Assembly (NCBI RefSeq): GCF_057098645.1
Contig: NZ_CM169472.1
Length of the DNA: 64,000 nt
Direction: 5' to 3' (one strand)
In this document: piece after piece, positions 33,991 through 62,739 of the stretch
Layout of the letters: each line of letters begins with the position of its first letter
Numbering within the stretch: the first letter of the stretch is position 1
The notes under the pieces: model-generated
What the model saw: only the letters and a program-made list of their open reading frames with translations
Told to the model about the DNA's origin: nothing
The model's database searches: none
Position numbers and translations under genes: made by a program

Positions 33991-34016
33991 ACAAAAAAAC
34001 CACCCGAAGGTGGTTT
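33991..34016 (-). terminator. rho-independent terminator at the original leuZ 3-prime flank
   Basis: aaaaaaaccaccc gaa ggtggttt hairpin; left copy of the repeat. Confidence 0.6.
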
Positions 34017-34059
34017 CACGACACTGCTTATTGCTTTGATTTTATTCTTATCTTTCCCA

Positions 34060-34115
34060 TGGTACCCGGAGCGGGACTTGAACCCGCACAGCGCGAACGC
34101 CGAGGGATTTTAAAT
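34060..34115 (-). other. tRNA-Leu 3-prime fragment (integration remnant)
   Basis: tggtacccggagcgggacttgaacccgcacagcgcgaacgccgagggattttaaat equals the 3-prime part of leuZ; 5-prime part replaced by island sequence. Confidence 0.85.
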
Positions 34116-36334: not shown

Positions 36335-36391
36335 TTTATATCCTTACATAGCTGGATGAACACCATAGATCATACTGATCCCAGATCCAAT

Positions 36392-36901: not shown

Positions 36902-36952
36902 AAAACCCCTTCTTATATAGTTCTGTAATATGTTAATTTAGCTGGGCTCTTA

Positions 36953-40989: not shown

Positions 40990-41058
40990 CCGGTAATCCT
41001 TCTTGGCTAAGAGGTGAAACTGTATGTCCTTACGGACATACTCAAAATGAACGAAGAC

Positions 41059-42843
41059 TTATGATGAAAAGAACGGCGAGTCCCGATAAAGGCGATTGTA
41101 CTTGACCTGTTCTGTTTCGCCCTTGTTTACATTACCAAATTTCTCCTGATGCGTCGTACAGCAGGAACCACAGGATGCACAAATAAATCGTCCTTCTGAA
41201 CATTTTTCATGCAAATCCCTGGCGTCAATTATTTCGCTGCATTTGTAACCAATACAGTGATTAATGTAATGCCCGATACCAAACTGTTCGCACGAATGAC
41301 TGGCACATTTAAAGACGGTCAGGCGATACGCGGCCTGGAAAGGTTTTTTCACAAATCCTTTCGACTTTGTATCCCAGACGCTGACTTCCACACGAGCATA
41401 TTTCATATCTGGAACCATCAGCACCCCACAACTTCGGCAATGCAAGCGGGAATGTAATTCTCTGATACGATTGAAATACCCAGCCAGTTTAATTGGGAAA
41501 TCCCGCTTAGAAGGTTCGCCTGCAATCAGATAGGTCATGCCATAGTGGGCAAGCCAGTCATAAATAGTGAAGTCGATGTAATCCCGACTGAGGTCGGGTA
41601 GTACCTGCGGATCATGGCAGATTTTCGAACGACAAAGGAATTTTTTCTCTATCGTTCCGTCAGGTTGTTTTGCATTCCAGTGAAATGCCTCACAGGATAA
41701 TTTTAAATTCCGGGAACGAATTTTCAATGAGCTACACTGTGGGAACAATTTGAAAACAGAAGGATGGCTTACCGGGATTTTACCCGACAACACTCCCTGC
41801 CATATCTCATGCAGAATAATACTCAGAACGGACTGTTCATCGTTACGCCCAATCAGCGGTAACAATTTACTCAGAATAAAGTATTCAGGGTCAGAAGAAA
41901 TTTCAGTATTCGACTCAATATCATTAACAAAACTGAAATCTTTCCTGAACATCTTCTGTTTAATCAAATACTTATTGACAAAAGGACTAATCACGGAATG
42001 TTTATAAAATTGCTCTCTCGATGAGAATTTCTGCTGATAGGCATCACGGACAAATGGTTGTATATCCATTTTATTTTTCGTGAAACTACGTCGAACAAAA
42101 TTCTCTATATCATCATGCCGATGTTCAAGAATCCGCTCGCTGCTTATACAATCGTAAAATGCCAGGTAGAGAATAGCACTTATAGATATATGGCTGAGTA
42201 ATTCATTGATGATGTCCGATGTTGAAGCCCCCTGGCAATCCGTAGCCGCAGAACACCTTTTCACCCAAACAGCGAACTGATCAATGTTATTATCGATAAA
42301 TGACGAAGGCATGACTGCAGGAGATATTTGTTGTGCGGTCAAATCATCAAAATTCTTATCAGAGGCGAAAAGTGCAAACTGGTTATCGTAGTTACGTGAT
42401 TTTAAAAATAGCGGCAAGACTTTTGTAGCAGCTATATCACTGGTAACTAACCGAATTATAGCCCTTTCGCCAAAGGACTGAGTGAGAAAATTAATAACGC
42501 AGTCACGATAACGCCAACGAGCGAAATCAACGCCCTCCTCAATAATAGCCCGGAGATATTCAATAAGGAGCTCAGCCGTCTCCTCATCTGTTTTATCAAG
42601 AATGTGAACATTAAAAGCCGTAGGCTTACCATTTTTACCTGTACCTTCCCTGAACAGCACCGGTGCATTGTCTGCGGGTGTATAGTTCCGGCTTATCTCA
42701 TTCTTATGAAAAAACAGCTCATTACCATTCTCTGATAAGAGAAAGCCAAAGTTATTCTCCCGATCCGTTTTGCTGTTGTAGCCTCCGAACCAGAGAACAT
42801 TTCCCATGTACCACCGGGAACGATCCAGATTGTTCACTGCCAT
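41059..42843 (-). CDS. protein of unknown function: N-terminal cold-shock-like domain, C-terminal Cys/His-rich putative zinc-ribbon region
   Basis: Start chosen at MAVNNLDR with RBS GAAGGGGG 7 nt upstream (594 aa); WFGGYNSKTDRENNFGFL resembles the CSD KWFN..KGFGFI core; C-terminal clusters CRSCG, CASHSC, CASCGSCC. Confidence 0.55.
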   Translation of the reverse strand: MAVNNLDRSRWYMGNVLWFGGYNSKTDRENNFGFLLSENGNELFFHKNEISRNYTPADNAPVLFREGTGKNGKPTAFNVHILDKTDEETAELLIEYLRAIIEEGVDFARWRYRDCVINFLTQSFGERAIIRLVTSDIAATKVLPLFLKSRNYDNQFALFASDKNFDDLTAQQISPAVMPSSFIDNNIDQFAVWVKRCSAATDCQGASTSDIINELLSHISISAILYLAFYDCISSERILEHRHDDIENFVRRSFTKNKMDIQPFVRDAYQQKFSSREQFYKHSVISPFVNKYLIKQKMFRKDFSFVNDIESNTEISSDPEYFILSKLLPLIGRNDEQSVLSIILHEIWQGVLSGKIPVSHPSVFKLFPQCSSLKIRSRNLKLSCEAFHWNAKQPDGTIEKKFLCRSKICHDPQVLPDLSRDYIDFTIYDWLAHYGMTYLIAGEPSKRDFPIKLAGYFNRIRELHSRLHCRSCGVLMVPDMKYARVEVSVWDTKSKGFVKKPFQAAYRLTVFKCASHSCEQFGIGHYINHCIGYKCSEIIDARDLHEKCSEGRFICASCGSCCTTHQEKFGNVNKGETEQVKYNRLYRDSPFFSS

Positions 42844-42865
42844 GAGCAAGCCCCCTTCCGCTTTG

Positions 42866-43549
42866 TCAGTGCAGGCAGCACTTTTTAAATTTTTTACCAC
42901 TGCCACACTGACACGGGTCATTACGACCGGGCAGTTTTTCTGCCCCCTTCACGGGAACAGGCCGGGATGATGCCTCTGACATTCTCACCGACAACCAGTG
43001 CTGGTAAAGCGCCAGTGCCGCAGGCTGAATGAGAGTAATACTCTGTTCAAATTGAACAGGTGACATTTTCTCAACCACTGGGAAGTTCTTTTCAATACCA
43101 TGAAGGGCTATCGCCTCCAGCGAGGGACGTAAGGCCTCTGGCAAGGCTGACCAGTCATCCAGAGACCGGCCTTTCATATACCCGAAACACCACTCTTCGA
43201 CGATGGTATATGTCTTCCCCTTCACCTCACGTCCATTGAAAATCGGTTCAAACTGTTCAGGGGCCTCATACAGGCAGCCAGCGATATCGTTCATATGCTG
43301 AAAACACAGCCCCACAAAACGCGTCATCTCTTTTTCAGTGGTCCAGCGAGGGTGGTAATCACCTCGCCCCCAGATAGCACTGAGCCAGGTATTAGGGGAA
43401 ATCGTATTCGGGCCAGAGACAATCGCCGTCAGAAAGCCATCCAGCTCAGAGAAACAGAGCACAGAGTCATCATTGCCGTATTTCATCAACACCTCTTCCA
43501 GCCAGTCGATTTCCCGGTCAATCAGCGGCCCGCTTTTCGTCAGTTTCAT
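42866..43549 (-). CDS. YecA-like UPF0149 protein with SEC-C motif (paralogue of chromosomal yecA)
   Basis: 227-aa ORF colinear with YecA at roughly 60 percent identity by eye, ends [24 protein letters not shown] overlap with hsdS stop; stop 22 nt before next gene. Confidence 0.7.
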   Translation of the reverse strand: MKLTKSGPLIDREIDWLEEVLMKYGNDDSVLCFSELDGFLTAIVSGPNTISPNTWLSAIWGRGDYHPRWTTEKEMTRFVGLCFQHMNDIAGCLYEAPEQFEPIFNGREVKGKTYTIVEEWCFGYMKGRSLDDWSALPEALRPSLEAIALHGIEKNFPVVEKMSPVQFEQSITLIQPAALALYQHWLSVRMSEASSRPVPVKGAEKLPGRNDPCQCGSGKKFKKCCLH

Positions 43550-44188
43550 TCGGCAACCGCCTCATCGACCTTAACACGACGTTTGCCAGTCAGTAGCTGT
43601 TGCATCAGGGCTTTTTTCTCGTCTTTCAGGCAGGCGAGTTTTTTCTCCAGCGTGGAGATTTCAGCGTCGGCAGCGGAAAGGACGGCGGCGATTTTTTGTT
43701 GTTCTTTGATATCTAATGGCAACCTAAAGTCTTTCTCTTTAAGTTCTCGCATATGTCTGCTGTAACCTAAATTCGGAATATCTGTATTTGAAAGAAGATA
43801 GTATCCAAGTTTTGGTTCAAGTATTTTGCTAGTTTTTATTACTTGCGTTCCATCAGCACCGGGACAAAACACAAACTCAATCCATTTGACGCATCTTGTA
43901 TGATCGCCAAAAACAATCACAGGCACGTCCGAATAAACCTCTAAATTATTACAGTACCCAGCAATTCGACTTTGCCCTTGATCGATTATAGGGATGGAAC
44001 CTGACTGTAAATAATCGGAAGATTTGACTTGCGCCGATTTTTTATTTGCAACAATGAAAGCATTATCAAACGTTAAATATACCCACTCCCCATTAAACCT
44101 CCCCCCATTCTCATCCAGCAAGCGTTTTTGTCCGGTAAGCAATTGCTGCATCAGGGCTTTTTTCTGTTGCTGGCTGTTGGTGAGAAGC

Positions 44189-45245
44189 GGCTTTGTTGAA
44201 TAAATCAGATTTCGGGTAAGTCTCCCCCGTAGCGGGTTGTGTTTTCAGGCAATACGCACGCTTTCAGGCATACCTGCTTTCGTCATTTTGTTCAGCGCTC
44301 GTACCAGGGCCATAGCCTCCGCAACCTGACCATCGTAGTCACGCAGCGTCAGTGAACCCCCGAACAGCTGTTTTACCCGGTACATCGCCGTTTCCGCTAT
44401 CGAGCGACGGTTGTAATCTGTTGTCCATTTCCACCGCGCATTACTCCCGGTCATTCGCTGATTAGCCACTGCACGGTTACGGTCTGCATATTCACCGGGC
44501 CAGTAGCCCGCACCTTTTCGGGGAGGGATAAGCGCGCTGATTTTCTTACGCCGCAGTTCATCGTGACATAGCCGGGTATCGTAAGCGCCATCGGCGGCGG
44601 CTGACCTGATTTTCCGGTGGGTTTGCCGGATTAACCCGGGGAAGGCCTCTGAGTCCGTAACGTTGTTCAGCGACAGGTCTGCACAGATGATTTCATGTGT
44701 TTTACTGTCAACGGCGAGATGCAGCTTACGCCAGATACGGCGGCGTTCCTGGCCATGCTTTTTGACTTTCCACTCGCCTTCACCGAAGACCTTCAGCCCG
44801 GTGGAATCAATCACCAGATGTGCGATTTCACCCCGGGTGGGCGTTTTGAAACTGACATTAACCGACTTTGCCCGCCTGCTGACACAGCTGTAATCCGGGC
44901 AGCGTAGCGGAACGTTCATCAGAGAAAAAATGGAATCAATAAAGCCCTGCGCAGCGCGCAGGGTCAGCCTGAATACGCGTTTAATGACCAGCACAGTCGT
45001 GATGGCAAGGTCAGAATAGCGCTGAGGTCTGCCTCGTGAAGAAGGTGTTGCTGACTCATACCAGGCCTGAATAGCTTCATCATCCAGCCAGAAAGTTATG
45101 GAGCCACGGTTGATGAGGGCTTTATTGTAGGTGGGCCAGTTGGTGATTTTGAACTTTTGCTTTGCCACGGAACGGTCTGCGTTGTCGGGAAGATGCGTGA
45201 TCTGATCCTTCAACTCAGCAAAAGTTCGATTTATTCAACAAAGCC
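44189..45245 (-). mobile_element. IS903-like element (IS5 family), copy 1, 1057 bp
   Basis: Terminal inverted repeats GGCTTTGTTGAATAAATC; 9-bp target duplication GTGAGAAGC at 44180-44188 and 45246-45254. Confidence 0.9.
44245..45213 (-). CDS. IS903-like transposase
   Basis: 322-aa ORF; recognised by eye as IS903/IS102-type transposase. Confidence 0.85.
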   Translation of the reverse strand: MKDQITHLPDNADRSVAKQKFKITNWPTYNKALINRGSITFWLDDEAIQAWYESATPSSRGRPQRYSDLAITTVLVIKRVFRLTLRAAQGFIDSIFSLMNVPLRCPDYSCVSRRAKSVNVSFKTPTRGEIAHLVIDSTGLKVFGEGEWKVKKHGQERRRIWRKLHLAVDSKTHEIICADLSLNNVTDSEAFPGLIRQTHRKIRSAAADGAYDTRLCHDELRRKKISALIPPRKGAGYWPGEYADRNRAVANQRMTGSNARWKWTTDYNRRSIAETAMYRVKQLFGGSLTLRDYDGQVAEAMALVRALNKMTKAGMPESVRIA

Positions 45246-45815
45246 GTGAGAAGCTTTTCCGTCACCGAAATCGCCTCATCCCAGGTTGACAGAATTTTAA
45301 CGATTCTCTTTTGTTCAGACAGTGGGGGGATATTAAATGGCCACTTAAACCAACTATCTAACTTAAAAATCATTTTCTCTATGTGCACACCAATGCTAGA
45401 GTGGAAGCAGGTTTGCTGGAAATATAGAGACTCCGATAGAAATTCCATATAAGGAAGATAAAAACCGGACTTCCCTGTAAGCACACAATATTCATTCGAT
45501 ACAATTGAGCCAGAAAGTTCTTTAGGTACAAGACCGCAAGCACCGTGCACAATTTGTCGTTTTGATATGAGAAAGTCGCCTTCTTTAATATAGAATTGAC
45601 TTTTTACGGAGATATCTTTTCCTTTAAGATGCTCACGTCTTATTACGCCACCTCTGGAGCGCTTTACTGTAACTAAGTCATACTCTTGATTATCTTGTAT
45701 ATATGCCTTTCTTGCCTCTATATTTAAGCACTTTTCTAATGATAACTTTTGCCATCCTGTAGGTAGCATTCCAAGGATCGGTTTTCCAGCTTTAACGCTC
45801 ACTGGGTAAAGCGAA

Positions 45816-47339
45816 TCACGAGCCATAACCCAACTCCTTCAAATACCCTGCCATCTCAACTTCCAGCTTCGCCAGTTCCACCTTCAGTTGCTCACGCTCT
45901 GCTCGCACCGCCACCAGGTCAATCTCATCCTCTTCTTCAAAGGTATCGACATAGCGCGGAATATTGAGGTTGTAATCGTTGTCCTGAATTTCCTTCAGGC
46001 TGGCAAGATAGGCGTATTTCTCGACGTTATCGCCATCACGGTAGGTCTTGACGATTTTCTTAATGTTTTCTTCGCTAAGCTGGTTCTGGTTTTTACCTGC
46101 CTTGAATTCACGGCTGGCATCGATAAACAGCACCTTGTCATCAACTTTCTACTTTTTGAAAATCAGAATCGCAGCCGGAATCCCCGTACCGTAGAACAGT
46201 TTTTCCGGCAGACCAATTACCGCATCCAGCAAATTTTCGTCGATCAGTTTCTGGCGAATTTTACCTTCGCTGGAGCCACGGAAAAGCACACCGTGTGGCA
46301 CAACTACGCCCATACGGCCAGTTCCCGGTTTCAGGGTTTCGATCATATGCGAGATAAAAGCGTAATCTCCTTTAGTCTTCGGCGGTACACCGCGACGAAA
46401 ACGGCCAAACTTATCGTTCTCGGCCTCGTCATGGCCCCACTTATCGAGGCTGAACGGTGGGTTAGCGGTCACGATATCAAACAGCATCAGGTCGCCATTT
46501 TTATCGAGCAGCTTCGGGTTACGAATGGTATCGCCCCACTCGATTTTATGGTTGTCTTCCCCGTGCAGGAACATATTCATTTTCGCCAGCGACCACGTAG
46601 AACCGATCGCTTCCTGACCGAACAAGGCATAGTTACGACTATCATGCCCGGAGACAATTTTACGCCCACACTTCATCAATAATGAACCGGAACCACAGGC
46701 TGGATCGCAGATGGTATCACCCGGTTGCGGATCGAGCAGTTCTGCAATCAGGTCCGAAACTTCCGGCGGGGTATAGAACTCCCCGGCTTTCTGCCCACCG
46801 CTGGCGGCAAAGTTTTTGATCAGGTATTCGTAAGCATTGCCGATAACGTCCAGCGTACCGACACGACTCGGCTTCAGGTTGAGATCTTCACCGGCGAAGT
46901 CTTCCAGTAGCTGACGCAGTATGGTGTTTTTCTGTTTTTCTTCGCCAAGACGATCGGTGTTAAACGAAATATCCTGGAACACGCTTTTCCCGGCATCTTT
47001 CAGTTTGGTTCCGTTGGCTTCTTCGATTGCATGCAGAGCCTGATCGATACGCTCACCGTTACCCAGCTCATGGCGGCGTTCGTACAGCGCATAAAAGCTG
47101 GCACTTTTTGGCAGTACAAAACGCTCGTTGGCCATCATCGCTTCAATCAGTTCCGGCGCATCGCCATACTGTTCTTTGTATTCGTCATAGTGATCCTGCC
47201 AGACATCTGAAATGTACTTGAGGAACAGCATGGTAAGGATAAAGTCTTTATAGGTATCAGCACTGATGGTGCCACGGAACGTATCACACGCGGCCCACAG
47301 GGCTTTGTTGATCGTGTCCTGACTGATTTTGTCGTTCAT
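45816..47339 (-). pseudogene. hsdM: type I R-M methyltransferase HsdM with in-frame amber codon at 46149-46151
   Basis: 396-codon ORF with N6-adenine MTase motifs (DPACGSG, NPPF) stops at ...AAILIFKK TAG, then continues in frame KVDDKVLFIDAS... for 105 more codons; overlaps hsdS start. Confidence 0.8.
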
Positions 47340-49279: not shown

Positions 49280-50126
49280 ATGTTCGAGAAAATGAAAAAC
49301 AATGTAACCCGTGTACCGGGGAATTTAACCATACTTAATCAATACCAAAAAGACATTGATCACCTGTCTAAATTATTTTCTGAACAGCTATTACTGGATC
49401 TAATGACGACTACCAACCCTAATCAAACATTGCAAATGAAACCTTCTGTAGATATTCTTCATGTACTATCTCCATCAGCATCCACTGCTAACCATATCAA
49501 TTTTTTTCAGCACGTCCCAGTGATCGAACTATGGTTAAAAAAGGAGTGCACTGCCTTTAATTCACTTGCTATTTATTTCTATGCACAGCAATCCCGTAAA
49601 AATGTCATTCCGAAAAAAAATCTGTAGACAACTGGACGTATTTATTAATACTGAACTTGCATCTGCGGTTAATGGCAATAGTAATTCTAAACCCCTTTTT
49701 CATTTTCTAAATAACTACCTTTATCATCCTAAAATGATTGCATTGATCATTTTATCTATGCTGCCTTATGAAGTCATTCGTAACGATGAATCACTGAGTG
49801 AGTTTAAAACACCATTAACCACACCCGATGAGTTTATTATCAAAGCATTTTGCGTTAAAGGTACGCAAAACACCACGGGACATAAAAAAGATATCGAACA
49901 ATTGCTTCGAAAAACATATATCTACATTGCATTACTTTTGAACCCTGAGTGGGTACCATCATCCAAGGATTTGATTTCCTTTTTATCAGGAGAGTCCACC
50001 GAGATAAGTGGTTCAATGAATTTCCAGTCAACGTCCAGTGGTCTGGGTGTTCAAACTAACAATATCACTCTTCTTAAGAATGAGGTTTACTTCGAAAAAA
50101 TAGCGAACAAGATCATGAAACTGTAG
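49280..50126 (+). pseudogene. hypothetical gene split by a frameshift in an A8 tract (49614-49621)
   Basis: ORFs 49280-49627 and 49566-50126 overlap in different frames; with A7 instead of A8 the frame reads through (...IPKKICRQLDVF...). Confidence 0.45.
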
Positions 50127-50271
50127 TTTCTTAATATAATGGCGACATGGAATTGTGTTGCCATTATATCCGAATCAGAATTTTTCACCTGATGAACTGT
50201 GAAAACTGAGACTGGCAGACAGTAATCTCGCACCGTATTTTTTCTGTGTTATTTTACAGGAGAAATACGAT

Positions 50272-51400
50272 GCCCATTCTGGATCTGCGTTTCAGCAACA
50301 AATCACTTCACCAACTTCCCCATCCCCTCACGGGCTGTCAGGAATACCGTGATATTCACTGCCAAAACCTGCGTGCTCTGGTGTATCCCAATCGGATCAC
50401 GCTGGCCTTTCGTGCCACTATAAACAATCAGCGTATATATGAACCCCTGGGTCAGTTCCCTCAGCTCTGCGTTGAGGATGCCCGTCAGCATGTGATGAAA
50501 CTGCTTGCTGATAAAAATCGTCTTGCGGTTCAGTCCCGTCGATTCACTGTGGAACAGGCCATCAATGACCTGTGGCTACCGGATTTGCAGTTGTATAAAA
50601 AGAGTCCTCAGTCAGAGTTGTCAAAACTCAACCTCTACGTTCGCCCGTTCTGGGGCAAGCGGCAACTTCGCGACATCACGGCAGGAGAACTAGAACAATA
50701 TGCTGCTGGCTTACGGGAAAAATTACGTCCGTCAACAGTAAACCGTATCCTCGCAATATTGTCCAAAATATGCTCTCTGGCAGTACGTGCTGGATGGATC
50801 ACGCATTCCCCGATGTCACATGTCCGCTATCTGAAAGAAAATAACATTCGCTATCGCACACTATCAGCGACAGAAATCCCGCGCTTTATTGACGCGGCAA
50901 CAGCGCTGCAAACACCGGCAGCTGATTCTATATTGCTTGCTCTTTATACGGGGATGCGTATTGGTGAGGTATGTACCCTGAAATGGGAGTACTGGCACCT
51001 GGATATGCATCAACTCATACTGCCTGATACAAAGTCCGGACACCCTTTCACCTGCCCACTTGCACCTCCAGCCATTGCAGTTGTCCAGTGCCAGCAGGAC
51101 CTGATGCTCAGCAAAACTTACATTTTTCCGCGACTAACCGACAATGCCCGCCCTCTGGCATATCCGCGTGCAACCTTTGCCCGTATTTGCCGGGATGCCG
51201 ACATTGATAACCTGCGGATGCATGACCTGCGCCGTACCTTTGCCACCCGGGTACTACAGGCGACCGGGGATATTGCAATCGCTTCCCATCTGCTAAATCA
51301 CCATTCACTCACGGCGACCCGTCGCTACGCTTTTCACAATGCAGCGACATCACACGCAGTGGTTTCTCAGGTCATTGAAAGTTATGACACGAAAAAATGA
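50272..51400 (+). CDS. tyrosine-type site-specific integrase
   Basis: RBS AGGAG then ATG; catalytic signature R (YTGMRIGE), HDLRRT, HH, RYAFH with Tyr. Confidence 0.75.
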
Positions 51401-51440
51401 ACCAATGATCTGTGATTCGTGAAAGCAGTTCGCAGAAAGA

Positions 51441-51608
51441 TTGAATCTTTCTGCATCCACGGTTGCGTCAGATATTTCTCGCAATCCCGGAAAACTCCCG
51501 CCCTTCATCAGAATTGGGCGGGCTATACGATTCTCTCTTGACGATATTGTTGATTGGGAAAATGCACATCGTCAAAACAAACTTAAAGGTGATATAAATG
51601 GTTACTAA
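51441..51608 (+). CDS. AlpA-like excisionase / HTH regulator (short ORF, no ATG; possibly TTG-initiated or a remnant)
   Basis: Translation LNLSASTVASDISRNPGKLPPFIRIGRAIRFSLDDIVDWENAH resembles AlpA-type HTH; frame opens right after a TGA. Confidence 0.4.
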   Translation: MNLSASTVASDISRNPGKLPPFIRIGRAIRFSLDDIVDWENAHRQNKLKGDINGY

Positions 51609-51786
51609 GAACACGGAAAATAACGCTAATAATGCACTGAACATTCTTCCCGAATCAGCAAGCACAGCTGTAGACAACGATGAAAAATATCTGTCCTTTG
51701 CATTAGTTCTCGCTATCACGATTATGGGCAACTGAACCGCCCCGGGAATCCTGGAGACTAAACTTCCTGAGAAAGAGGTAAACAGG

Positions 51787-52113
51787 ATGACTAAAAATAC
51801 TCGTTTTTCCCCTGAAGTCCGTCAACGGGCAGTCCGTATGGTTCTGGAAAGTCAGGGCGAATATGACTCACAATGGGCGACAATTTGTTCCATTGCTCCA
51901 AAGATTGGCTGTACGCCGGAGACTCTGCGTGTCTGGGTTCGCCAGCATGAGCGGGATACCGGGGGCGGTGATGGAGGGCTCACCACCGCTGAACGTCAGC
52001 GTCTGAAAGAGCTGGAGCGTGAAAATCGTGAACTGCGCCGCAGTAACGATATCCTTCGCCAGGCTTCCGCTTATTTTGCGAAGGCGGAGTTCGACCGCCT
52101 CTGGAAAAAATGA
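51787..52113 (+). CDS. IS629 OrfA (transposase N-terminal HTH part)
   Basis: 108-aa [22 protein letters not shown]... Confidence 0.85.
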
Positions 52114-53000
52114 TGCCACTGCTGGATAAGCTGCGTGAGCAGTACGGGGTCGGACCGCTATGCAGCGAACTGCATATTGCCCCGTCAACGTATTACCACT
52201 GTCAGCAACAGCGACATCATCCGGATAAACGCAGTGCCCGTGCGCAGCGCGATGACTGGCTGAAGAAAGAGATACAGCGCGTATACGATGAAAATCACAA
52301 GGTATACGGTGTGCGTAAAGTCTGGCGTCAGTTGTTACGGGAAGGTATCAGAGTGGCCAGATGCACTGTGGCACGTCTCATGGCGGTTATGGGACTTGCC
52401 GGTGTTCTCCGGGGTAAAAAGGTCCGTACGACCATCAGCCGGAAAGCCGTTGCCGCAGGCGACCGCGTAAACCGTCAGTTCGTGGCAGAACGACCTGACC
52501 AGCTGTGGGTGGCTGATTTTACTTACGTCAGCACATGGCAGGGCTTCGTCTATGTGGCGTTCATCATTGATGTGTTTGCCGGATACATTGTGGGGTGGCG
52601 GGTCTCATCGTCCATGGAGACGACATTCGTGCTGGATGCACTGGAGCAGGCGTTATGGGCCCGTCGACCGTCCGGCACGGTCCATCACAGTGATAAAGGT
52701 TCTCAGTATGTATCGCTGGCCTACACACAGCGGCTTAAGGAAGCCGGATTACTGGCATCAACAGGAAGTACAGGCGACTCGTATGACAACGCGATGGCGG
52801 AGAGCATCAATGGTCTTTACAAAGCGGAGGTAATACACCGTAAGAGCTGGAAAAACCGTGCAGAAGTGGAACTGGCCACACTCACGTGGGTGGACTGGTA
52901 TAACAATCGACGATTGCTGGAAAGGCTGGGCCATACTCCTCCGGCAGAAGCAGAAAAAGCTTATTATGCTTCCATCGGAAACGATGATCTGGCAGCCTGA
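52110..53000 (+). CDS. IS629 OrfB (transposase catalytic part, DDE)
   Basis: 296-aa ORF overlapping orfA. Confidence 0.85.
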
Positions 53001-53662
53001 GTTCACAGATAAAACACTCTCCAGGAAACCCGGGGCGGTTCAAACTTAGTAAAGCTCATCGGCACAGATGGCTTCATACTTTATACCTACACCCTGCAGG
53101 ACACGGCTACTGCTCGTGCTGTTTTTAATGAATTAGCCAGGCGTCTCAAAAATTTCAATCGTCAGGAGGAGGTCTACACCACCGATTCCCTCACCTTTCG
53201 AATGAAATACATTTACGGTGTTACCCTGTTCGAACATGATAGTAAATCTATCCTTAACCTTTTTGATAAGAAGGGTTATCCAGTATTGAGTGAATCAGGA
53301 GAACCCGGTTCTCTTGATGATATGTATCTTGACATTCAAGCCCGATTACATGGCGGCTACGCCTCAAAAAAGTTTCTTCATTTACATGAACATTGTCTGT
53401 TATCTGCACACGTTACCCCGTCTGTGGAAAAGACGCAACGTGGTATCCTGATTAAAGCAGGCAGGAAACTCGTTTCCTTTATCTATGCAGATAATGAATC
53501 TCGCAAAAATGATATTTTCAAAGCTGTAGTAGACGTCATTAAATCCTGATTCATTATGCCGGGTGCGTATTCCGCTCTATTCGATCACGGATTGGCATCG
53601 AAGTCCGATCAGCGATTCGCATCCATTCGATCAACCGGGAACTTAACTTTTTCTACCGCTTT

Positions 53663-54421
53663 TTAACGCGTTTTTTCGCTGCTTTCCACTACCGGGGGAT
53701 TTTTCCTCAGTGACTCTCCCTGAAGGACCACTCGGTGTGAGTTATGTACCAGTCTGTCCAGGATGGCATCTGCTGTTGTTGGGTTCTCCATCAGACCATG
53801 CCATTTATCTACCGGGAACTGGCTTACCACTATCGTGCTGCTTTGTCCGTAACGATCCTCTATGAGCTCCAGAAGGTCATTACACTGGGCGTTACTTAAC
53901 TGTTCCAGCCCCAGATCGTCCAGGATTAGAACCTGTATTTTTTGCAACTGTTTCAGATATTTCAGCCAGCTGCCATCAACACGTCCCTGAGCCAGTTGTT
54001 CCAGTAATCGCCCGGTTCTACAGTACCGGACGCTGTGTTTCTGTCGACATGCCTGTTCGCCCAGCGCATTGGCTATCCAGCTCTTGCCACATCCTGTCGG
54101 ACCGGTTATCAGCAGGTTTTTCCTGTGGGTTATGTAGTGGCCGTTCAGCAGTTCTCTCATCTGTTCAGCCCGCAGACCTCTTGAGGCCGGATAGCGCAGC
54201 CCTTCCGGTGTTGCCTGGTATTTCAGGCCGGCATTTTTTCTCAACCGTGCCACACGGCTGTTTTCCCTGCTCAGAAGCTCGTCATCAACCAGCAGCGTCA
54301 GCCTTTCCTCGAACGACAGTTCGTCGTAGGTCTGAGGCGTTTCCCGCTGCCGTATCAGGCTCCCGGCCATCGCCGGGAGTTTCAGTTGGGTCAGTTTGTT
54401 TAACAGGTTATCACTCATACT
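53663..54421 (-). CDS. istB: IS21-family IstB ATP-binding helper protein
   Basis: Start at MSDNLLNKL; Walker A GPTGCGKS. Confidence 0.75.
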   Translation of the reverse strand, partial: SMSDNLLNKLTQLKLPAMAGSLIRQRETPQTYDELSFEERLTLLVDDELLSRENSRVARLRKNAGLKYQATPEGLRYPASRGLRAEQMRELLNGHYITHRKNLLITGPTGCGKSWIANALGEQACRQKHSVRYCRTGRLLEQLAQGRVDGSWLKYLKQLQKIQVLILDDLGLEQLSNAQCNDLLELIEDRYGQSSTIVVSQFPVDKWHGLMENPTTADAILDRLVHNSHRVVLQGESLRKNPPVVESSEKTR

Positions 54422-54434
54422 GTTGTTCCTTCTG

Positions 54435-55970
54435 TCAGTGGTAGTAGCCCGGACCACGCAGGTTTTCATGCTCTGAAGCATATGCCGGATGTTGTTCGCC
54501 CTGGCGGGATAATGGAAGCTCCAGGTTCTCCCGATGGTGACGCAGCAGATTGTCGATAAAGCGTCTGTCAGGGGCGTTATAGTGCAGGGCAACGTAACAG
54601 GCCTTTTCCAGCCGTTCCGGGCCGTATTTTTTCTGAAGTGCCAGCAGCCCCAGAACTGCACGATAAGCCAGTTCCGGATGGGGTTTTGCCTTCAGCATGG
54701 ATTCAACCACCCGGCCTGTGGACGGGCCCGTACGTTTTCCCTGCTCGATCAGGCGTTCCGGTGTCCATGTCCCGTGCTGCCGGTGGCGCTCTGGCATGTG
54801 AAGCGGATTGGTTGTGTGTTTATATTCATGTGTGCTGCGCGGATGTTGCGCCACACACTGCCCCTTGTGCCAGAGCTGTACCACCGACTGCCCCGCCTTC
54901 AGTGACAGACGCTGACCGACCAGTTCGTGTGGAACGGAGTACCAGTGACGGGCATATTCAACGTGGTAGTCAGGGCCAACCTTCACAGCTTTGTATTCCG
55001 TGTATTCATAAGGTGCCAGAGGCAGCGGAGAGAGTGCTGGCGCATCCAGTATGCGGAAGCGTTCTGCACGGGTTTGATTGCCGTACCCCTTCATTGGCCG
55101 GTTATTCATGTCTGTCAGTAACTCCCTAAGGCGCGCATTCAGCGCCCTGAGCGTGTGGAAGGTTTCATTACGGATGCGGGCAAGAAGCCATCGTTCAACG
55201 ATGAGGACGCCGTTTTCTGCTTTTGGTTTATCTTTAGGTTTGCGTGGTCGGGCCGGGATGATAACCGTGCCATAGTGCTCAGCCAGTGCCTGATAACTGT
55301 CGTTGATGACAGGCTCATATCGATCGGCCTTTTTCACTGCGCTTCTGAGGTTATCGGGGATGAGCAGCTTCGGTACGCCGCCCAGGAAGGTCAGGCAACG
55401 GCTGTGGGCATTTAACCATGACATCATGTCCTGACCTTCGCACGCTTCAACGTAGGTATAGTTGGACGCCCCCATTACGGCCACGAAGATTGCCACGCGG
55501 CGTATCTCACCGGTGTCCGGATTAATAACAGGAACCGTAGGACCACAGAAGTCGATAAAAAGCTTTTCGCCGGCACGATGCTCCTGGCGCATGGAGAGAC
55601 GTCGCGTTTTTTTCCACTCCCGGTAGCAACGGCAGAAGTGCGAGTATCCCATCGCTTTGTTACCCGCCTGTGCCTTGTATTCCATCCACAACAGTTGCCG
55701 CGTCACACCTGGTTTTCTCATTTCCGTATCGAAGTACAACATGTCAGGCATTACAAGCTCTGATGCAAAGGTGTCTTTGGGCGGAAAAATGAGTTTCTCC
55801 AGCGTGTCATGGGATATATCAGCAGGTAATGGCCATGACAGAGAAGAGGCTTTGAAGCGGGCAAGAACCTCAAAAACGGTTGAGGCGCTGATGTGTAACG
55901 TCAGTCCGATACAACGGTTAGTCAGCTTCTTGTCGAACTTGAGCTGAAGGATCTTAAAACAGGTTTCCAT
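54435..55970 (-). CDS. istA: IS21-family transposase IstA
   Basis: Start chosen at METCFKIL; DDE integrase-type fold; precedes istB. Confidence 0.7.
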   Translation of the reverse strand: METCFKILQLKFDKKLTNRCIGLTLHISASTVFEVLARFKASSLSWPLPADISHDTLEKLIFPPKDTFASELVMPDMLYFDTEMRKPGVTRQLLWMEYKAQAGNKAMGYSHFCRCYREWKKTRRLSMRQEHRAGEKLFIDFCGPTVPVINPDTGEIRRVAIFVAVMGASNYTYVEACEGQDMMSWLNAHSRCLTFLGGVPKLLIPDNLRSAVKKADRYEPVINDSYQALAEHYGTVIIPARPRKPKDKPKAENGVLIVERWLLARIRNETFHTLRALNARLRELLTDMNNRPMKGYGNQTRAERFRILDAPALSPLPLAPYEYTEYKAVKVGPDYHVEYARHWYSVPHELVGQRLSLKAGQSVVQLWHKGQCVAQHPRSTHEYKHTTNPLHMPERHRQHGTWTPERLIEQGKRTGPSTGRVVESMLKAKPHPELAYRAVLGLLALQKKYGPERLEKACYVALHYNAPDRRFIDNLLRHHRENLELPLSRQGEQHPAYASEHENLRGPGYYH

Positions 55971-56594
55971 AGTGCTCCTGGATTTTCTCTTTCTGGACAT
56001 TGACGTCTCCACTGGTTTAAACACGGCAATGGAGACTGTGGTGAAAAGAGTTAATTCCCGGAGTGACTGGCAGGATGCCAATCAATGATCGGAAGCATGC
56101 CAAATCGTGATCGATTGTGATGCCAAACTGTGATCGGAGATGGATGCCAAATCATGATCGATTCGAATGCCAAACTGCGATCGATTCAGATGCCATTTTG
56201 CAGCCGGGGGGGACGAACTCCCGGCATTTTTTCGGAGTTAACTATGAGCAATAATTTGCAGGACATCCTCGCTGCCGCATCGGGGTATCAGTCCGTGACT
56301 TCAGAGCCAGCGCTCAATCTTAAAAGACCTAAAACGCTTGATGATTATCCTGTGATACCACCTGCATCAAAAAAAGTATCTGTTATTTCAAGTGACCTGA
56401 CACTCCATATCGGTTTTGATACCGAATATGTTTTCAATCCTGAAACACAACAGAATGATATTCTGTCATATCAGAGTTATGTTGTCTTACCCGATAATAC
56501 AGGTATATCGAACATTATCTATCCACCTGACTCACAGAAAAAATCCCGGCTGTCTTTTAAGAACTTTCTCTGTCAAACGATTATGGATTTGCCC

Positions 56595-57500
56595 CTATAT
56601 TTCCAGACATCTGTTATCACTTAACCCATTACAAGCCCGCTGCCGCAGATATTCCCGTGGCGAGCGATAACCCAGCGCACTATGCGGATGCCATTCGTTA
56701 TAATGCTCGAACGCCTCTGCAAGGTTCTTTGCTGCCGTTAACCCGTCTGGTTTGGGCATGATACTGATGTAGTCACGCTTTATCGTTTTCACGAAGCTCT
56801 CTGCTATTCCGTTACTCTCCGGACTCCGCACCGCCGTGTTCTTCGGTTCAAGTCCCAACATCCGGGCGAACTGGCGTGTTTCATTAGCCCGGTAGCATGA
56901 ACCATTATCCGTCAGCCACTCCACTGGAGACGACGGAAGATCGTTGCCGAAGCGGCGTTCCACCGCTCCCAGCATGACGTCCTGTACTGTTTCACTGTTG
57001 AAGCCGCCGGTAGTCACCGCCCAGTGCAGTGCCTCACGATCACAGCAGTCCAGCGCGAACGTGACACGCAGTCTCTCTCCGTTATCACAGCAGAACTCGA
57101 ACCCGTCAGAGCACCATCGCTGATTGCTTTCTTTCACGGCCACTCTGCCTGTATGTGCCCGTTTCGATGGCGGTACAGCAGGTTTTCGCTCAAGCAACAG
57201 CGCATTCTGGCGCATGATCCGGTAAACACGTTTGGCATTGATCGCAGGCATACCATCAAGTTCTGCCTGTCTGCGAAGCAGCGCCCATACCCGACGATAA
57301 CCATACGTGGGCAGCTCTCCGATAACATGGTGTATACGGAGAAGCACATCCGTATCATCAGTGTGACGACTGCGGCGGCCATCCATCCAGTCATCGGTTC
57401 GTCTGAGAATGACGTGCAACTGCGCACGCGACACCCGGAGACAACGGCTGACTAAGCTTACTCCCCATCCCCGGGCAATAAGGGCGCGTGCGCTATCCAC
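56595..57500 (-). CDS. insD: IS2 transposase InsD
   Basis: 301-aa ORF. Confidence 0.85.
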
Positions 57501-57823
57501 TTTTTTGCCCGTCCATATTCAACGGCTTCTTTGAGGAGTTCATTTTCCATCGTTTTCTTGCCGAGCAGGCGCTGGAGTTCTTTAATCTGCTTCATGGCGG
57601 CAGCAAGTTCAGAGGCAGGAACAACCTGTTCTCCGGCGGCCACAGCAGTAAGACTTCCTTCCTGGTATTGCTTACGCCAGAGAAATAACTGGCTGGCTGC
57701 TACACCATGTTGCCGGGCAACGAGGGAGACCGTCATCCCCGGTTCAAAGCTCTGCTGAACAATTGCGATCTTTTCCTGTGTGGTACGCCGTCTGCGTTTC
57801 TCCGGCCCTAAGACATCAATCAT
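57458..57823 (-). CDS. insC: IS2 InsC
   Basis: Start at [13 protein letters not shown], 121 aa. Confidence 0.85.
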
Positions 57824-59974
57824 CTGTTCTCCAATGACTAGTCTAAAAACTAGTATTAAGACTATCACTTATTTAAGTGATACTGGTTGTCTGGAGATTC
57901 AGGGGGCCAGTCTAGATTACACCGCTTCTTGAAACGGGTGTGATTACAAAATGGCCCGGTATTATTAATATATATGCGCATTTCATTCGTGCGGATATCA
58001 CCTCCTTTGCCAATTTCTGGTCAGACTACAAAATTCTTCTGAAAGGAATACGCGGTACTGTCAGCAGCTTCAAAAATCGTTACGGTATCGATTTTGATGA
58101 ACAGCAGGAACGTCGCGTAAAGACTGAACAGATAATGTTTGACAAACGAACTTCCCCTCCGCGTTGCAGTAACGTAGCTTTCATCGATACACTGCTTATC
58201 ACTCCCGGGGGTATGGGTCTGGCTGAATGTGGTGAATTACTGGGTCTTCCCAAACTGACCATTCCTGCACCTTATTCCATAACCAATATGCGTGAATATC
58301 TTCTGGGCGACAGAGCAGGGTTTGAAGCCTATGCTCTGCGGGATGCCGAGATTGCGGTTCGTTATGCTTTACAGGTTCGCAATTTTTGCGCCCGGGAGCT
58401 GATGATTGATCGTGTCCCCGCCACCATCGGGGCGATGGCAGTTTCACGGTTCACCAAAACACTTAAAGAAAACAATATGTCTCCTGAAGTCTGCCTTGGG
58501 ACACACATTAAAACCCGTGAACTCTGGCTCACGGAGAAACAGGCATTCCGGACGATTAAAAACCCCGCCAGTGTTCCTTCAAGAGAGCTGTTTGAAACGT
58601 TCCCGATCAACTGTTACCACGGCGGACGCAATGAGTGTTTTATGATGGGGGTTACACCGTCTGATCACTGGTATGACTACGATCTGGCTGGAGCGTATAC
58701 CACCGGGCTATTAGATATCCTCATACCCGATTACGGAAACATCCGCCTCAGTAAAAATCCGGACGATTACTGTGGGCATGTAATGGGATTTGCGTTTGTC
58801 ACATTTCAGTTCCCGGAATCAGTTCCCTATCCCAGCCTGCCGGTTCGGACCGATCAATATGGGTTATTCTTTCCATTAAGTGGCGAATCATGGGCAACGG
58901 CACCTGAAATCGAACTTGCTCTGTCGCTCGGGGCAGAGATGACGATCCATAATGGGATCATCGTCCCCTGGATCTGTGACACCTCCCCACATAACAGCGA
59001 ATCAACATCGGTGTTTCTTCCCTTTGTTCAACAGGTCCGTGAGAACCGTAATCGCCATATTAAAGGTTCTCTGGAGGAGAAATTCTGGAAAGAAATTGGC
59101 AACTCGCTTTATGGCAAACTTGCTCAGGGCCTTCGCGCCAAAACCGCCTTTGATACTGCCCGTGGATTAAACAGATCCCTCCCACCATCATCGGTTACTC
59201 AGCCATTCTTTGCTGCGCATGTGACGGGATTTATCCGCGCCGTTGTCGGGGAACTCATGAATGCTTTGCCTTCTGATTCATCGGTTGTCAGCGTCACAAC
59301 CGATGGCTTTTTGACAAATTGCCCACTTAACAAGATAAACATGAGCGGTCCACTGTCTTCCCGCTTCCAGTCGCTGTGCGATATTGTTGATCCGGGTTCA
59401 TCAATGTTGACATGTAAGCATGAGGTCAGCCAGCTTATCGCCATGAAAACCCGGGGGCAGTTAACCTATAGAGCTATTCAGGGAAAACCTGTTGTTCATG
59501 CCAGGGCTGGCGTCAAACCTCCTGCCGATATTCCACGCAGTGACTATAACGACTATATGGTAGATCTTTACCTTAATCGTTTACCCGGTCAGACGTTATC
59601 CCGAAGTACGTTGATATCAACGCGTGAGATGTGGCTGTCGGAAAGCGATCTGGTATCCCGGGAACAGGATATCCGTCTTAATCTGGAATTCGATTTCAAA
59701 CGCCAGCCCGTACAGCCCGCCATGAATGAAGGGCATTTACTGATGTCTTCCCGCCCATGGGATAATATGGAAGAGGCTCTGCAGCAACGCTCTCTTTTCG
59801 ACGACTGGCGGCAAACGCATACACTGAAGACCCTGGCTGACTGGGATGACTGGTGTGATTTTCTCTATTGCCGGACGGTGTTTTCTGATATGAAACTAAA
59901 AGTCGGAAGCAAACGTAGTGATGATATTTTAGTCAGACTATTTCTCCGGGCGCTGACTCAGTGCCAATGGGGGC

Positions 59975-60523
59975 TTATGCTGAAAGATAAAAAAAGTTAT
60001 TCCTGTAAAGAGGTTGCTGAATGGCTGACGTCAGAAGGCTATTCAGTAACATGTCAAAAAGCACCTGCTGGATCTCCCGGGCCCGAAGGTCGCAGTAACG
60101 TATCTTCCCCAGACGAGGTTCAATGTATTGCGTGAAACGCTGAACATCCTTATCCCAGGACTTTTTATGGCGTTTGATGAACGGAACATAGGTCTGGTGA
60201 AAAAACTCACTAAGTGTTGGCATCGCACGATAATTATCGCGTTCTGCTTTAGGGTCATTTCCCAGTGCAATCGCCTCCTTGTGACGACGAGCTATCTGAC
60301 GGGCTGTCCCCACATCGATTTCAGGGAATCTGCCAATACTGATACTTTTTTTGGTACCGTGGAATGTGTAGCGCAGGAGGAAACGTTTGTTACCCGTTCG
60401 ACCTGAGAGACATTTGAGGCCTATGACCTCGGTATCTGATACCTCAAGCTCTGTAGATCGGGTATCTGTGTTTGCCGGAAGGGCTTTGATGGATGAATTG
60501 GTGAATCGGAAGGATTTTTGCAT
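59975..60523 (-). pseudogene. N-terminal fragment of a P4-type tyrosine integrase (arm-binding domain), truncated
   Basis: MQKSFRFTNSSIKALP ... GRFPEIDVGTARQIARRHKEAIALGNDP resembles integrase N-terminal domain; no catalytic domain follows; overlaps piPolB 3-prime end on the opposite strand. Confidence 0.5.
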
Positions 60524-60709
60524 ATTTATCCTCATGTATCTGATTGATATCATGAAAATAATATATATCTGAAGGTGTTTTTATTACGGGGCAGGATTGA
60601 AGAATGGAAAAGCTATTAGACGCGTACAAACGGATATTGCAGGAAGTTAACGCCCAGTCATTTAACCTGAATGAGGATAAATACTCAGGCGTCTTTTTAC
60701 CCGTGCCGT

Positions 60710-61766
60710 GGCTTTGTTGAATAAATCGAACTTTTGCTGAGTTGAAGGATCAGATCACGCATCTTCCCGACAACGCAGACCGTTCCGTGGCAAAGCAAAA
60801 GTTCAAAATCACCAACTGGCCCACCTACAATAAAGCCCTCATCAACCGTGGCTCCATAACTTTCTGGCTGGATGATGAAGCTATTCAGGCCTGGTATGAG
60901 TCAGCAACACCTTCTTCACGAGGCAGACCTCAGCGCTATTCTGACCTTGCCATCACGACTGTGCTGGTCATTAAACGCGTATTCAGGCTGACCCTGCGCG
61001 CTGCGCAGGGCTTTATTGATTCCATTTTTTCTCTGATGAACGTTCCGCTACGCTGCCCGGATTACAGCTGTGTCAGCAGGCGGGCAAAGTCGGTTAATGT
61101 CAGTTTCAAAACGCCCACCCGGGGTGAAATCGCACATCTGGTGATTGATTCCACCGGGCTGAAGGTCTTCGGTGAAGGCGAGTGGAAAGTCAAAAAGCAT
61201 GGCCAGGAACGCCGCCGTATCTGGCGTAAGCTGCATCTCGCCGTTGACAGTAAAACACATGAAATCATCTGTGCAGACCTGTCGCTGAACAACGTTACGG
61301 ACTCAGAGGCCTTCCCCGGGTTAATCCGGCAAACCCACCGGAAAATCAGGTCAGCCGCCGCCGATGGCGCTTACGATACCCGGCTATGTCACGATGAACT
61401 GCGGCGTAAGAAAATCAGCGCGCTTATCCCTCCCCGAAAAGGTGCGGGCTACTGGCCCGGTGAATATGCAGACCGTAACCGTGCAGTGGCTAATCAGCGA
61501 ATGACCGGGAGTAATGCGCGGTGGAAATGGACAACAGATTACAACCGTCGCTCGATAGCGGAAACGGCGATGTACCGGGTAAAACAGCTGTTCGGGGGTT
61601 CACTGACGCTGCGTGACTACGATGGTCAGGTTGCGGAGGCTATGGCCCTGGTACGAGCGCTGAACAAAATGACGAAAGCAGGTATGCCTGAAAGCGTGCG
61701 TATTGCCTGAAAACACAACCCGCTACGGGGGAGACTTACCCGAAATCTGATTTATTCAACAAAGCC
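60710..61766 (+). mobile_element. IS903-like element, copy 2, 1057 bp, inverted relative to copy 1
   Basis: Same inverted repeats; 9-bp target duplication CCGTGCCGT at 60701-60709 and 61767-61775. Confidence 0.9.
60742..61710 (+). CDS. IS903-like transposase
   Basis: 322-aa ORF identical in translation to the copy at 44245-45213. Confidence 0.85.
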   Translation: MKDQITHLPDNADRSVAKQKFKITNWPTYNKALINRGSITFWLDDEAIQAWYESATPSSRGRPQRYSDLAITTVLVIKRVFRLTLRAAQGFIDSIFSLMNVPLRCPDYSCVSRRAKSVNVSFKTPTRGEIAHLVIDSTGLKVFGEGEWKVKKHGQERRRIWRKLHLAVDSKTHEIICADLSLNNVTDSEAFPGLIRQTHRKIRSAAADGAYDTRLCHDELRRKKISALIPPRKGAGYWPGEYADRNRAVANQRMTGSNARWKWTTDYNRRSIAETAMYRVKQLFGGSLTLRDYDGQVAEAMALVRALNKMTKAGMPESVRIA

Positions 61767-62578
61767 CCGTGCCGTTTGAAGAATACTGGCATTCACCGAT
61801 AAAAATCATGCTGGTTGGACGTGAAACCGCAGGCTGGAATACGCTGAATGGTAAGAATACGATATCACGGGTGTTGGGACTTATACCTGACGTCACCATC
61901 GGGCAAGTGGTTGAAGAAGCTGTAGATCGTTACAGGAAACATCTTCCGGTACAAAATTATGGCACCGCCAACCTCAAATCACGTAGCCGCTTCACGCAAT
62001 ATCATTTCAGGCTGGCCCGGGAGCTTAATATTCTTCCCCAGGCAATCGTGTATGCCAATCTACTGGCGTGGGATTACGACGGACTGACCCCTCTCAATCG
62101 CCCTCAAAATGAAGTGCAGGAAGTCATATTAGCCTCGCTGAAGCTACTGGCGGTACAAATTAAACACCTTGAGCCTGATTTCATCATCTTTGCATCTGGA
62201 GCCCGGAGAACAGACTACATCATAAAACAGGTGCTTACTGAGCTAGGCGGCTATGAGACTTCTTCAGTCATTCCGGGGAAGCTGTGGGAGTTCAAAACAG
62301 GTAATACAATCTGTTTCAGAATTGCCCATCCAAGGGCTATGCGCGGACACCAGAAGTACAGAGATGAGGTGATTGCACGAATTAAGCAACTTTGTACTCA
62401 GGGTGGCTAGAGCATTACAGCTTGCTCAGCAGGGCCCCTTCCCGGAAGAGTACCGGAAAACAGGCAAAGCAACCTGGTTCTCTATGCTGGAGGCGACACG
62501 TTCGATTCGGCATTGCCAGGCTGGAGATTGCAGCTCATTGCACCCCGTGAGCACAGGATATGCACAGGACATGAATTT

Positions 62579-62708
62579 CAGGCACAAAAAAACCACCCGG
62601 AGGTGGTTTCACGACACTGCTTATTGCTTTGATTTTATTCTTATCTTTCCCATGGTACCCGGAGCGGGACTTGAACCCGCACAGCGCGAACGCCGAGGGA
62701 TTTTAAAT
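62579..62708. repeat. attR: 130-bp direct repeat (leuZ 3-prime part plus downstream flank)
   Basis: Matches 33986-34115 with 1 mismatch. Confidence 0.9.
62584..62609 (-). terminator. rho-independent terminator downstream of leuZ (copy within attR)
   Basis: aaaaaaaccaccc gga ggtggttt. Confidence 0.6.
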
Positions 62709-62739
62709 CCCTTGTGTCTACCGATTCCACCATCCGGGC
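62653..62739 (-). tRNA. leuZ: tRNA-Leu
   Basis: 87-nt sequence, reverse complement GCCCGGATGGTGGAATCGGTAGACACAAGGGATTTAAAATCCC...GGGTACCA. Confidence 0.9.

Follow-up and report, generated by a model that had tools for sequence, protein, structure and literature searches.

Enterobacterial pipolins of the IntSXT + IntP2-Exc type include a subgroup with a truncated IntSXT and IS elements near IntP2 (Mateo-Caceres and Redrejo-Rodriguez, 2024, PMC11551731; Flament-Simon et al., 2020, PMC7385651). One of these studies sets apart a monophyletic enterobacterial subgroup in which the recombinases are truncated, the region between IntSXT and piPolB has a deletion, and gaps near IntP2 would fit IS elements (PMC11551731). 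IS-laden, truncated enterobacterial pipolins have already been published. The O145:NM strain FWSEC0002 is listed as a pipolin carrier (PMC7385651). For enterohaemorrhagic E. coli (EHEC), one study names IS629 as a main source of gene inactivation and deletions (PMC9943667). Here we describe a pipolin core in a 64,000-nucleotide stretch of contig NZ_CM169472.1 (hereafter the window), which is closest to E. coli O145:H28 genomes and in which a helix-turn-helix (HTH) reading frame behind the integrase gene lacks an ATG. This frame very probably reflects gene decay, namely a 143-bp deletion in O145 followed by private events in the pipolin core (a TTG codon, an IS629 and an IS21-family insertion), in an element that is probably fixed and decaying.

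By its sequence, this locus forms the core region of a pipolin, here an integrative island that encodes piPolB and occupies the leuZ tRNA-Leu gene in the E. coli O145 lineage. Two 133-bp att-like direct repeats, 98.5% identical to each other, lie at 33983-34115 and 62576-62708; the left one matches the tRNA-Leu-proximal repeat of strain PapRG-06-5, and the right one overlaps the 3' part of tRNA-Leu(taa) (62653-62739, minus strand). The gene yecA (33199-33864) stands just outside the left repeat and pgsA outside on the other side, an arrangement (att-like repeats, one of them over a tRNA, and a tRNA-Leu between pgsA and yecA) that matches the one published for E. coli pipolins. PapRG-06-5 has the same locus at 99.7-99.9% identity and without IS elements. 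An intact tyrosine recombinase of 376 aa (50270-51400, plus strand) matches Phage_integrase (78.8 bits), Phage_int_M and the phrog_1 integrase family (1.6e-52), differs from its PapRG-06-5 counterpart by one substitution (P59T), and is assigned to the IntP2 type by position, after PMC11551731. The gene order int, HTH_17 gene, 212-aa gene, piPolB is found in PapRG-06-5 and in two divergent metagenomic or assembly loci. The window likewise has a tyrosine recombinase followed by an excisionase-type gene beside piPolB, as in an IntP2-Exc core, with the excisionase present as a truncated remnant.

The 851-aa protein of PapRG-06-5 has D59, E61, D368, SVTTDG (573), K613, H614, K623 and R625, within which KH-X8-KTRG can be read; the same residues were mutated in the E. 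coli enzyme, and these residues and motifs define piPolB (PMC5695915). Against Pfam the protein matches DNA_pol_B_2 weakly, with further weak matches to protein-primed family-B polymerases, and a search of solved structures returned no informative match for it. Assignment of the window's gene to piPolB draws on these hallmark residues in the comparator and on the restoration of an 851-aa frame once its IS2 insertion is removed. An Arm-domain-only recombinase remnant overlaps the 3' end of piPolB, in keeping with the published subgroup whose recombinases are truncated.

The HTH frame itself is a 5'-truncated remnant of a 66-aa excisionase-type (HTH_17) gene (51423-51608, plus strand), without codons 1-5, the ribosome binding site (RBS) and the upstream spacer. 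It follows directly on a TGA (51420-51422), translates as KQFAERLNLSASTVASDISRNPGKLPPFIRIGRAIRFSLDDIVDWENAHRQNKLKGDINGY and ends at the stop TAA 51606-51608, and the TTG at 51441 is the sole ATG, GTG or TTG codon within it. The initial annotation had singled out a frame that opens after a TGA and has only a TTG as possible start, and both are present in the sequence. Against Pfam HTH_17 the remnant scores 28.8 bits (cut-off 27) in an alignment that begins at model position 5, and it is 98% identical to the annotated 66-aa gene of other strains; we therefore regard it as a true homologue and not a chance ORF.

What the frame has lost can be seen in PapRG-06-5, where a 66-aa 'helix-turn-helix transcriptional regulator' (WP_025653373) is annotated between the integrase and the 212-aa gene. 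At the position of the window's junction (51422/51423), PapRG-06-5 has 143 bp between ...TTCGTGA and AAGCAG..., and a three-way alignment finds these 143 bp missing from both the window and O145:H28 RM12761. They hold the int-xis spacer, a GGAGG, and the ATG with codons 2-5 (ATG TAT TTA ACC ATT, MYLTI). The deletion starts 22 bp past the integrase stop and takes the whole int-xis spacer, the RBS and codons 1-5, so that the module is degraded, as had been proposed, in a definable way: the native ATG, the Shine-Dalgarno site and the first five codons went with a single 143-bp loss. Two divergent pipolins, reached via distant homologues of the 212-aa protein, carry xis genes whose products are 78% and 53% identical and which have an ATG-TAT or ATG-TAC start (MYLTIKEF.. 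and MYINSKQL..), an MY(L/I).. N-terminus and an int-xis spacer of 136-146 bp. Since PapRG-06-5 and the divergent pipolins keep an ATG-TAT/TAC start after the spacer, the ancestral xis start is the ATG that is deleted in the window. The initial annotation had allowed for orthologues with a non-ATG start; those compared, distant ones included, begin ATG-TAT or ATG-TAC, and none is non-ATG. The excisionase-type gene of the window is accordingly classed as a predicted pseudogene.

The 143 bp are retained in 262 of the 283 complete E. coli genomes that have the locus; of the 60 records listed, those with the 143 bp carry an HTH or AlpA-family regulator annotation there in every case but one. Of 5,426 complete genomes, 18 have the deletion junction, and wherever a serotype is named it is O145 (H28 or NM); FWSEC0002 shares the junction. 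The deletion is lineage-wide in O145 and older than the strain-specific IS insertions. The existence of two length variants could also be read the other way round, with the 143 bp as an insertion in other strains, the short form as ancestral and the excisionase as naturally non-ATG; that, however, would leave the long form in most genomes with the locus, holding an ATG and conserved N-terminal codons, and would place the ancestral state in one serogroup lineage while divergent pipolins have the architecture and spacer length of the long form. The variants themselves are all that speaks for such a polarity, and we give it practically no weight. An IS- or IEE-mediated origin of the deletion was considered, and the junction has neither microhomology nor an IS footprint. 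We infer that a promoter may have been lost with the 143 bp; a simple sigma-70 scan of the plus strand of this segment returned none, and only two weak terminator-like hairpins were seen. RNA folding of the int-xis spacer was no better than that of shuffled sequences (z -1.2).

The TGA in front of the remnant is explained by the same event, as it is ordinary spacer sequence that the deletion moved beside codon 6. Just upstream, at 51405, stands an ATG in frame with the remnant, which opens a mini-ORF (MICDS-TGA). With only one stop between this ATG and the remnant, one can conceive of ribosomes that start at 51405 and pass the TGA at 51420, whether by readthrough or by recoding. Alignment shows, however, that the mini-ORF (51405-51422) is unchanged in strains with an intact int-xis spacer, where it is unrelated to xis; the in-frame arrangement would be a by-product of the deletion, for which no recoding signal is expected, and we hold readthrough to be extremely improbable. 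The initial annotation had passed over the ATG at 51405, as it had the pipolin context and the three IS elements present besides IS629.

The TTG codon (51441-51443, plus strand) is a private TTT->TTG change (Phe12->Leu), both RM12761 and PapRG-06-5 having TTT. The allele was found in none of 5,426 complete genomes, the best match being 99.7% identical with one mismatch in 393 nt; as a private change absent from all genomes searched, it is therefore not the native start. The remnant could still work if the change were a compensatory new start, acquired after the deletion, from which a 55-aa excisionase is made. TTG is a legitimate start codon in bacteria; the derived change gives the frame its one start codon, directly preceded by a purine-rich AGAAAGA; and the adjoining integrase is intact. 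Against this, the product would begin only after residues 1-11 (MYLTIKQFAER), a stretch that stays conserved among pipolins even at 53% identity and that corresponds to HTH_17 model positions 1 to about 10, and hence would have neither the conserved N-terminal strand nor the first helix. The purine run abuts the TTG, leaving no usable spacing, and is a poor match to the GGAGG core; no genome of the collection has the allele; and, with every neighbouring conserved core gene of this strain broken as well, nothing indicates that selection keeps the module. A functional TTG-started excisionase is, on balance, very improbable, and we retain the reading of the frame as a decayed gene.

The intact 66-aa orthologue scores 35.2 bits against HTH_17 (PF12728; cut-off 27), with the model aligning from residue 2. 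Its top NCBIfam match is TIGR01764 'excise', at 22.7 bits and below the cut-off of 28.8, and its top PDB sequence match is RdfS, which is not significant (E 0.36). The frame had initially been labelled AlpA-like; Phage_AlpA (PF05930) gave no match to the intact protein (E<=0.1) or to the remnant (E<=1), whereas HTH_17 is above threshold. The MYLT.. N-terminus was presumed to resemble that of lambda Xis, and a lambda Xis-like excisionase was set aside when a phmmer search of every PDB chain (E<=10) failed to bring up lambda Xis. Because of its HTH_17/excisionase family and its position beside a tyrosine recombinase, we read the 66-aa protein as a recombination directionality factor (RDF), which would serve the integrase and possibly also regulate downstream genes.

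Its main role might instead be to regulate transcription of the core operon (212-aa gene and piPolB), activating or repressing it as an AlpA-like or MerR-like protein, in which case its loss in O145 would have altered core expression and not the direction of excision. PGAP names the intact orthologue 'helix-turn-helix transcriptional regulator' or 'AlpA family transcriptional regulator', phrog_66, which it matches, is described as 'excisionase and transcriptional regulator', and the PADLOC mad1 HTH is matched at 6e-8; the overlap of the gene with the start of the 212-aa gene further suggests one transcription unit. On the other hand, the gene is in every case immediately preceded by one for a tyrosine recombinase, its best matches are to excisionase-type families (HTH_17, TIGR01764 as top NCBIfam match, RdfS as top PDB match), and Phage_AlpA was not returned at the thresholds given above. 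We consider a mainly regulatory role unlikely, though it deserves some weight. Many RDFs do both jobs, so that the regulator and RDF readings are not exclusive, and the 66-aa gene is dead in the window under either.

Downstream, the remnant shares 11 nt (ATGGTTACTAA) with a 212-aa ORF that begins at the ATG at 51598. The initial annotation had the stop of the remnant overlapping this ATG; the two ORFs do overlap, but the stop codon itself lies outside the ATG, and the arrangement is not an ATGA-type stop/start overlap. Three lineages were compared, and two of them show an overlap of this kind between the start of the 212-aa gene and the xis stop, which suggests translational coupling of the two genes. 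In the window the 212-aa gene is split into a 5' part of codons 1-45 (51598-51732, plus strand) and a 3' part of codons 46-212 (53046-53549, plus strand), which when joined restore a 212-aa protein identical to WP_022581683, with one synonymous difference at the nucleotide level. Between them lies an IS629 of 1,310 bp (51733-53042, plus strand; orfA 51787-52113, orfB 52110-53000), flanked by the target site duplication (TSD) AAC at 51730-51732 and 53043-53045. The element is 100% identical to copies annotated as IS629 OrfA/OrfB, and its terminal inverted repeats are imperfect (23 of the first 25 positions match); in length (~1.3 kb), orfA/orfB organization, inverted repeats, 3-bp TSD and identity to reference copies it is an IS629. 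The empty site in another strain, GGGCAAC/TTAGTA, has a single AAC, in agreement with the earlier placement of the insertion after codon 45 (AAC 51730-51732) with a TSD of AAC. The junction of this IS629 was found in none of 5,426 complete genomes. Whether some O145 genomes share the site was considered and rejected on a negative junction search, as IS629 lies elsewhere in those genomes.

The 212-aa protein may be one of the 'orphan' core genes of the published pipolin model. No entry of Pfam, NCBIfam, PHROGs or PADLOC matched it, and relatives at E<=0.001 number 15 in a word-indexed search and 18 in an exhaustive phmmer search of 1.84 billion representatives, many of them fragments. The full-length relatives are 50%, 36% and 29% identical, and the latter two are encoded between an HTH_17 gene and a piPolB-like gene of 866-869 aa. 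An AlphaFold2 model built from a 9-sequence alignment (pLDDT 90.4, pTM 0.83) comprises three repeats, each a beta-sheet followed by a helix, and IS629 cuts within the first repeat. The hydrophobic residues 30-50, at the IS629 site, had raised the idea of a transmembrane N-terminus, which was discarded since they form beta-strands in the model with pLDDT 90. One may tentatively propose, as a doubtful suggestion only, that the protein is an undescribed DNA-binding accessory factor of the pipolin core, with PH-like or LytTR-like repeats, that recruits, for instance, piPolB or the integrase/excisionase complex to the ends or the origin of the element.

The rest of the core is similarly disrupted. 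Upstream of the integrase, a broken conserved hypothetical gene of ~376 aa (49280-50126, plus strand) differs from its 376-aa counterpart in PapRG-06-5 by one additional A in an A-run near 49613 and by the loss of 285 bp at 49710; the gene at this position in distant pipolins encodes ~380-390 aa. An IS21-family element (ISSso4-like, with istA/istB; 53564-56202, minus strand; TSD GCCGGG), identified from the istB annotation of matching copies, sits between the 212-aa gene and piPolB, where it has entered the left arm of a GC hairpin followed by a T-run. piPolB is divided into a 5' fragment (56244-56583, plus strand) and a 3' fragment (57920-60135, plus strand) by an IS2 of 1,331 bp (56584-57914, minus strand; TSD GATTA) that splits the gene inside codon 114 and matches annotated IS2 copies at 100% identity; with the element taken out, the 851-aa protein is restored and differs from that of PapRG-06-5 by 6 substitutions. 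Finally, an IS903B of 1,057 bp (60710-61766, plus strand; TSD CCGTGCCGT), 100% identical to annotated IS903B copies, splits a 246-aa hypothetical gene beside attR (60604-60709 and 61776-62410, position from the RM12761 annotation). Neither IS2 nor IS903B is inserted at these sites in PapRG-06-5 or RM12761, with which the detailed comparison was made. The junction of the IS21-family element, like that of IS629, is absent from the 5,426 complete genomes, and these two insertions are therefore best dated as recent, strain-specific events. Of the conserved core genes, only the IntP2-type integrase has escaped disruption by the four IS elements and two deletions, and both the 212-aa gene and piPolB of the window are predicted to be null.

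Taken together, these results suggest a history in which an ancestral core would have had the order kept by intact relatives (a ~376-aa gene, the IntP2-type integrase, a 66-aa HTH_17 winged-helix protein, the 212-aa orphan and piPolB), with the 66-aa gene starting at an ATG behind GGAGG and the frame of the 212-aa gene opening 11 nt ahead of the excisionase stop. One 143-bp deletion in the O145 lineage then produced a frame without a start, which by chance adjoins a TGA that was already there. Private to the strain of the window are the TTT->TTG change in codon 12, IS629 after codon 45 and the IS21-family element just downstream of the 212-aa gene. The integrase and both att repeats are kept, the directionality factor and replicase would be lost, and the element would therefore probably be fixed in the chromosome and decaying. 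We infer that it can neither excise nor replicate, given the loss of xis, a truncated IntSXT-type recombinase and the disrupted piPolB; an earlier study suggests that truncation hampers the mobilisation of pipolins (PMC7385651). Since IntP2 may come second to IntSXT in moving pipolins (PMC11551731), the loss of xis may matter less than the truncation of IntSXT, which is also carried by non-O145 relatives.

In these terms the feature is routine IS- and deletion-driven decay of a known mobile element, and the apparent non-ATG start is explained by the deletion and is no biological peculiarity. Because of the deletion, annotation pipelines pass over this ORF in O145 genomes; its 143-bp junction is a clean lineage marker for O145 pipolins, and the pattern suggests an O145 pipolin that no longer moves. 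Of wider interest is one lead alone, the 212-aa orphan: it keeps strict synteny with piPolB in divergent pipolins, and its fold is predicted with confidence, making it a candidate partner in the biology of primer-independent PolB elements.

The IS629 insertion resembles IS629 gene inactivation in enterohaemorrhagic E. coli (O157, O145), being a canonical 1,310-bp element with a 3-bp TSD in a coding sequence, in a lineage that carries 30-40 IS629 copies per genome; set against those cases nothing about it is unusual, and only the insertion site is absent from the complete genomes searched. With AlpA (PF05930), known from CP4-57/P4-like elements and PICIs, the 66-aa protein shares its small size, an HTH and a place beside an integrase, as well as some PGAP labels, but it gave no match to PF05930 at E<=0.1 and its element is a pipolin, not a P4-like satellite. 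With RdfS of ICEMlSymR7A (PDB 8DGL) and other HTH_17 RDFs it shares a small size (66 aa), an HTH_17 match above threshold and a gene directly after a tyrosine recombinase, although it has no significant similarity to solved RDFs (E 0.36), its TIGR01764 score is below cut-off and the copy in the window is truncated. The element as a whole is like published pipolins in its tRNA-Leu between yecA and pgsA, att-like repeats and piPolB motifs including KH-X8-KTRG, in the IntP2-type integrase followed by an excisionase beside piPolB, in the truncated Arm-domain-only recombinase near attR, and in the type I R-M system and other defence cargo of its distal half. It is unlike them in that the copy in the window has lost the start of its excisionase to the 143-bp deletion and carries four different IS elements.

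The 143 bp missing from the window include a palindrome, CTGCAGGGCCC(T/G)GCAG, that is common to the spacers between integrase and xis of PapRG-06-5 (L002 9255-9275, in the locus of this strain that lacks IS elements) and of a distant pipolin (L005 5725-5745) whose xis, the excisionase-type gene, is 53% identical. This palindrome could be an operator or a terminator of the integrase gene. A mini-ORF, MICDS* (ATG ATC TGT GAT TCG TGA; window 51405-51422), starts 5 nt past the integrase stop and is unaltered in strains whose spacer is intact; that it lies in frame with the xis remnant of the window is an accident of the 143-bp deletion.

The gene for the 212-aa protein (L002 9542-10180; window 51598-51732 and 53046-53549) belongs to a tiny family with strict synteny with piPolB. 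The AF2 model of the protein is confident (pLDDT 90.4) and predicts three beta-sheet-plus-helix repeats, with only weak structural matches, which were PH-like/LytTR-like. Between this gene and piPolB, intact strains carry a GC-rich hairpin with a T-run after it (GCCGGGGGGGGACGAACTCCCGGCATTTTTT), and in the window the left arm of this hairpin is the target of an IS21-family element (ISSso4-like; 53564-56202; TSD GCCGGG). The junction of this element was absent from all 5,426 complete E. coli genomes searched.

Upstream of the integrase, the conserved gene of ~376 aa (49280-50126) is broken both by an A-run that is one A too long (near 49613) and by the loss of 285 bp (at 49710); at least this loss is also present in RM12761, an O145:H28 relative, where two short ORFs are annotated at this position. 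Adjoining the right att repeat, a 246-aa hypothetical gene (60604-62410) is interrupted ~35 codons in by IS903B (60710-61766; 9-bp TSD CCGTGCCGT). The distal half of the island (34463-47339) holds defence-type cargo, and its gene content differs from that of RM12761 and also from that of PapRG-06-5. The cargo comprises type I restriction-modification genes, among them an apparently full-length hsdR ORF (37705-40989; 1,094 aa) that is truncated in RM12761, together with genes for a DUF262 protein and an M48 peptidase.

IS2 (56584-57914; TSD GATTA) splits piPolB (56244-60135) inside codon 114. With IS2 removed, piPolB encodes 851 aa, with six substitutions relative to PapRG-06-5, and it starts with ATG, as opposed to GTG in that strain. 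Its 3' end is overlapped by the remnant of an IntSXT-type recombinase with an Arm-DNA-binding domain (59975-60553, minus strand), from which the C-terminus is missing. The same truncation is found in PapRG-06-5, which is otherwise intact, and the truncated recombinase of both fits the truncated pipolin subgroup that has been described (PMC11551731).
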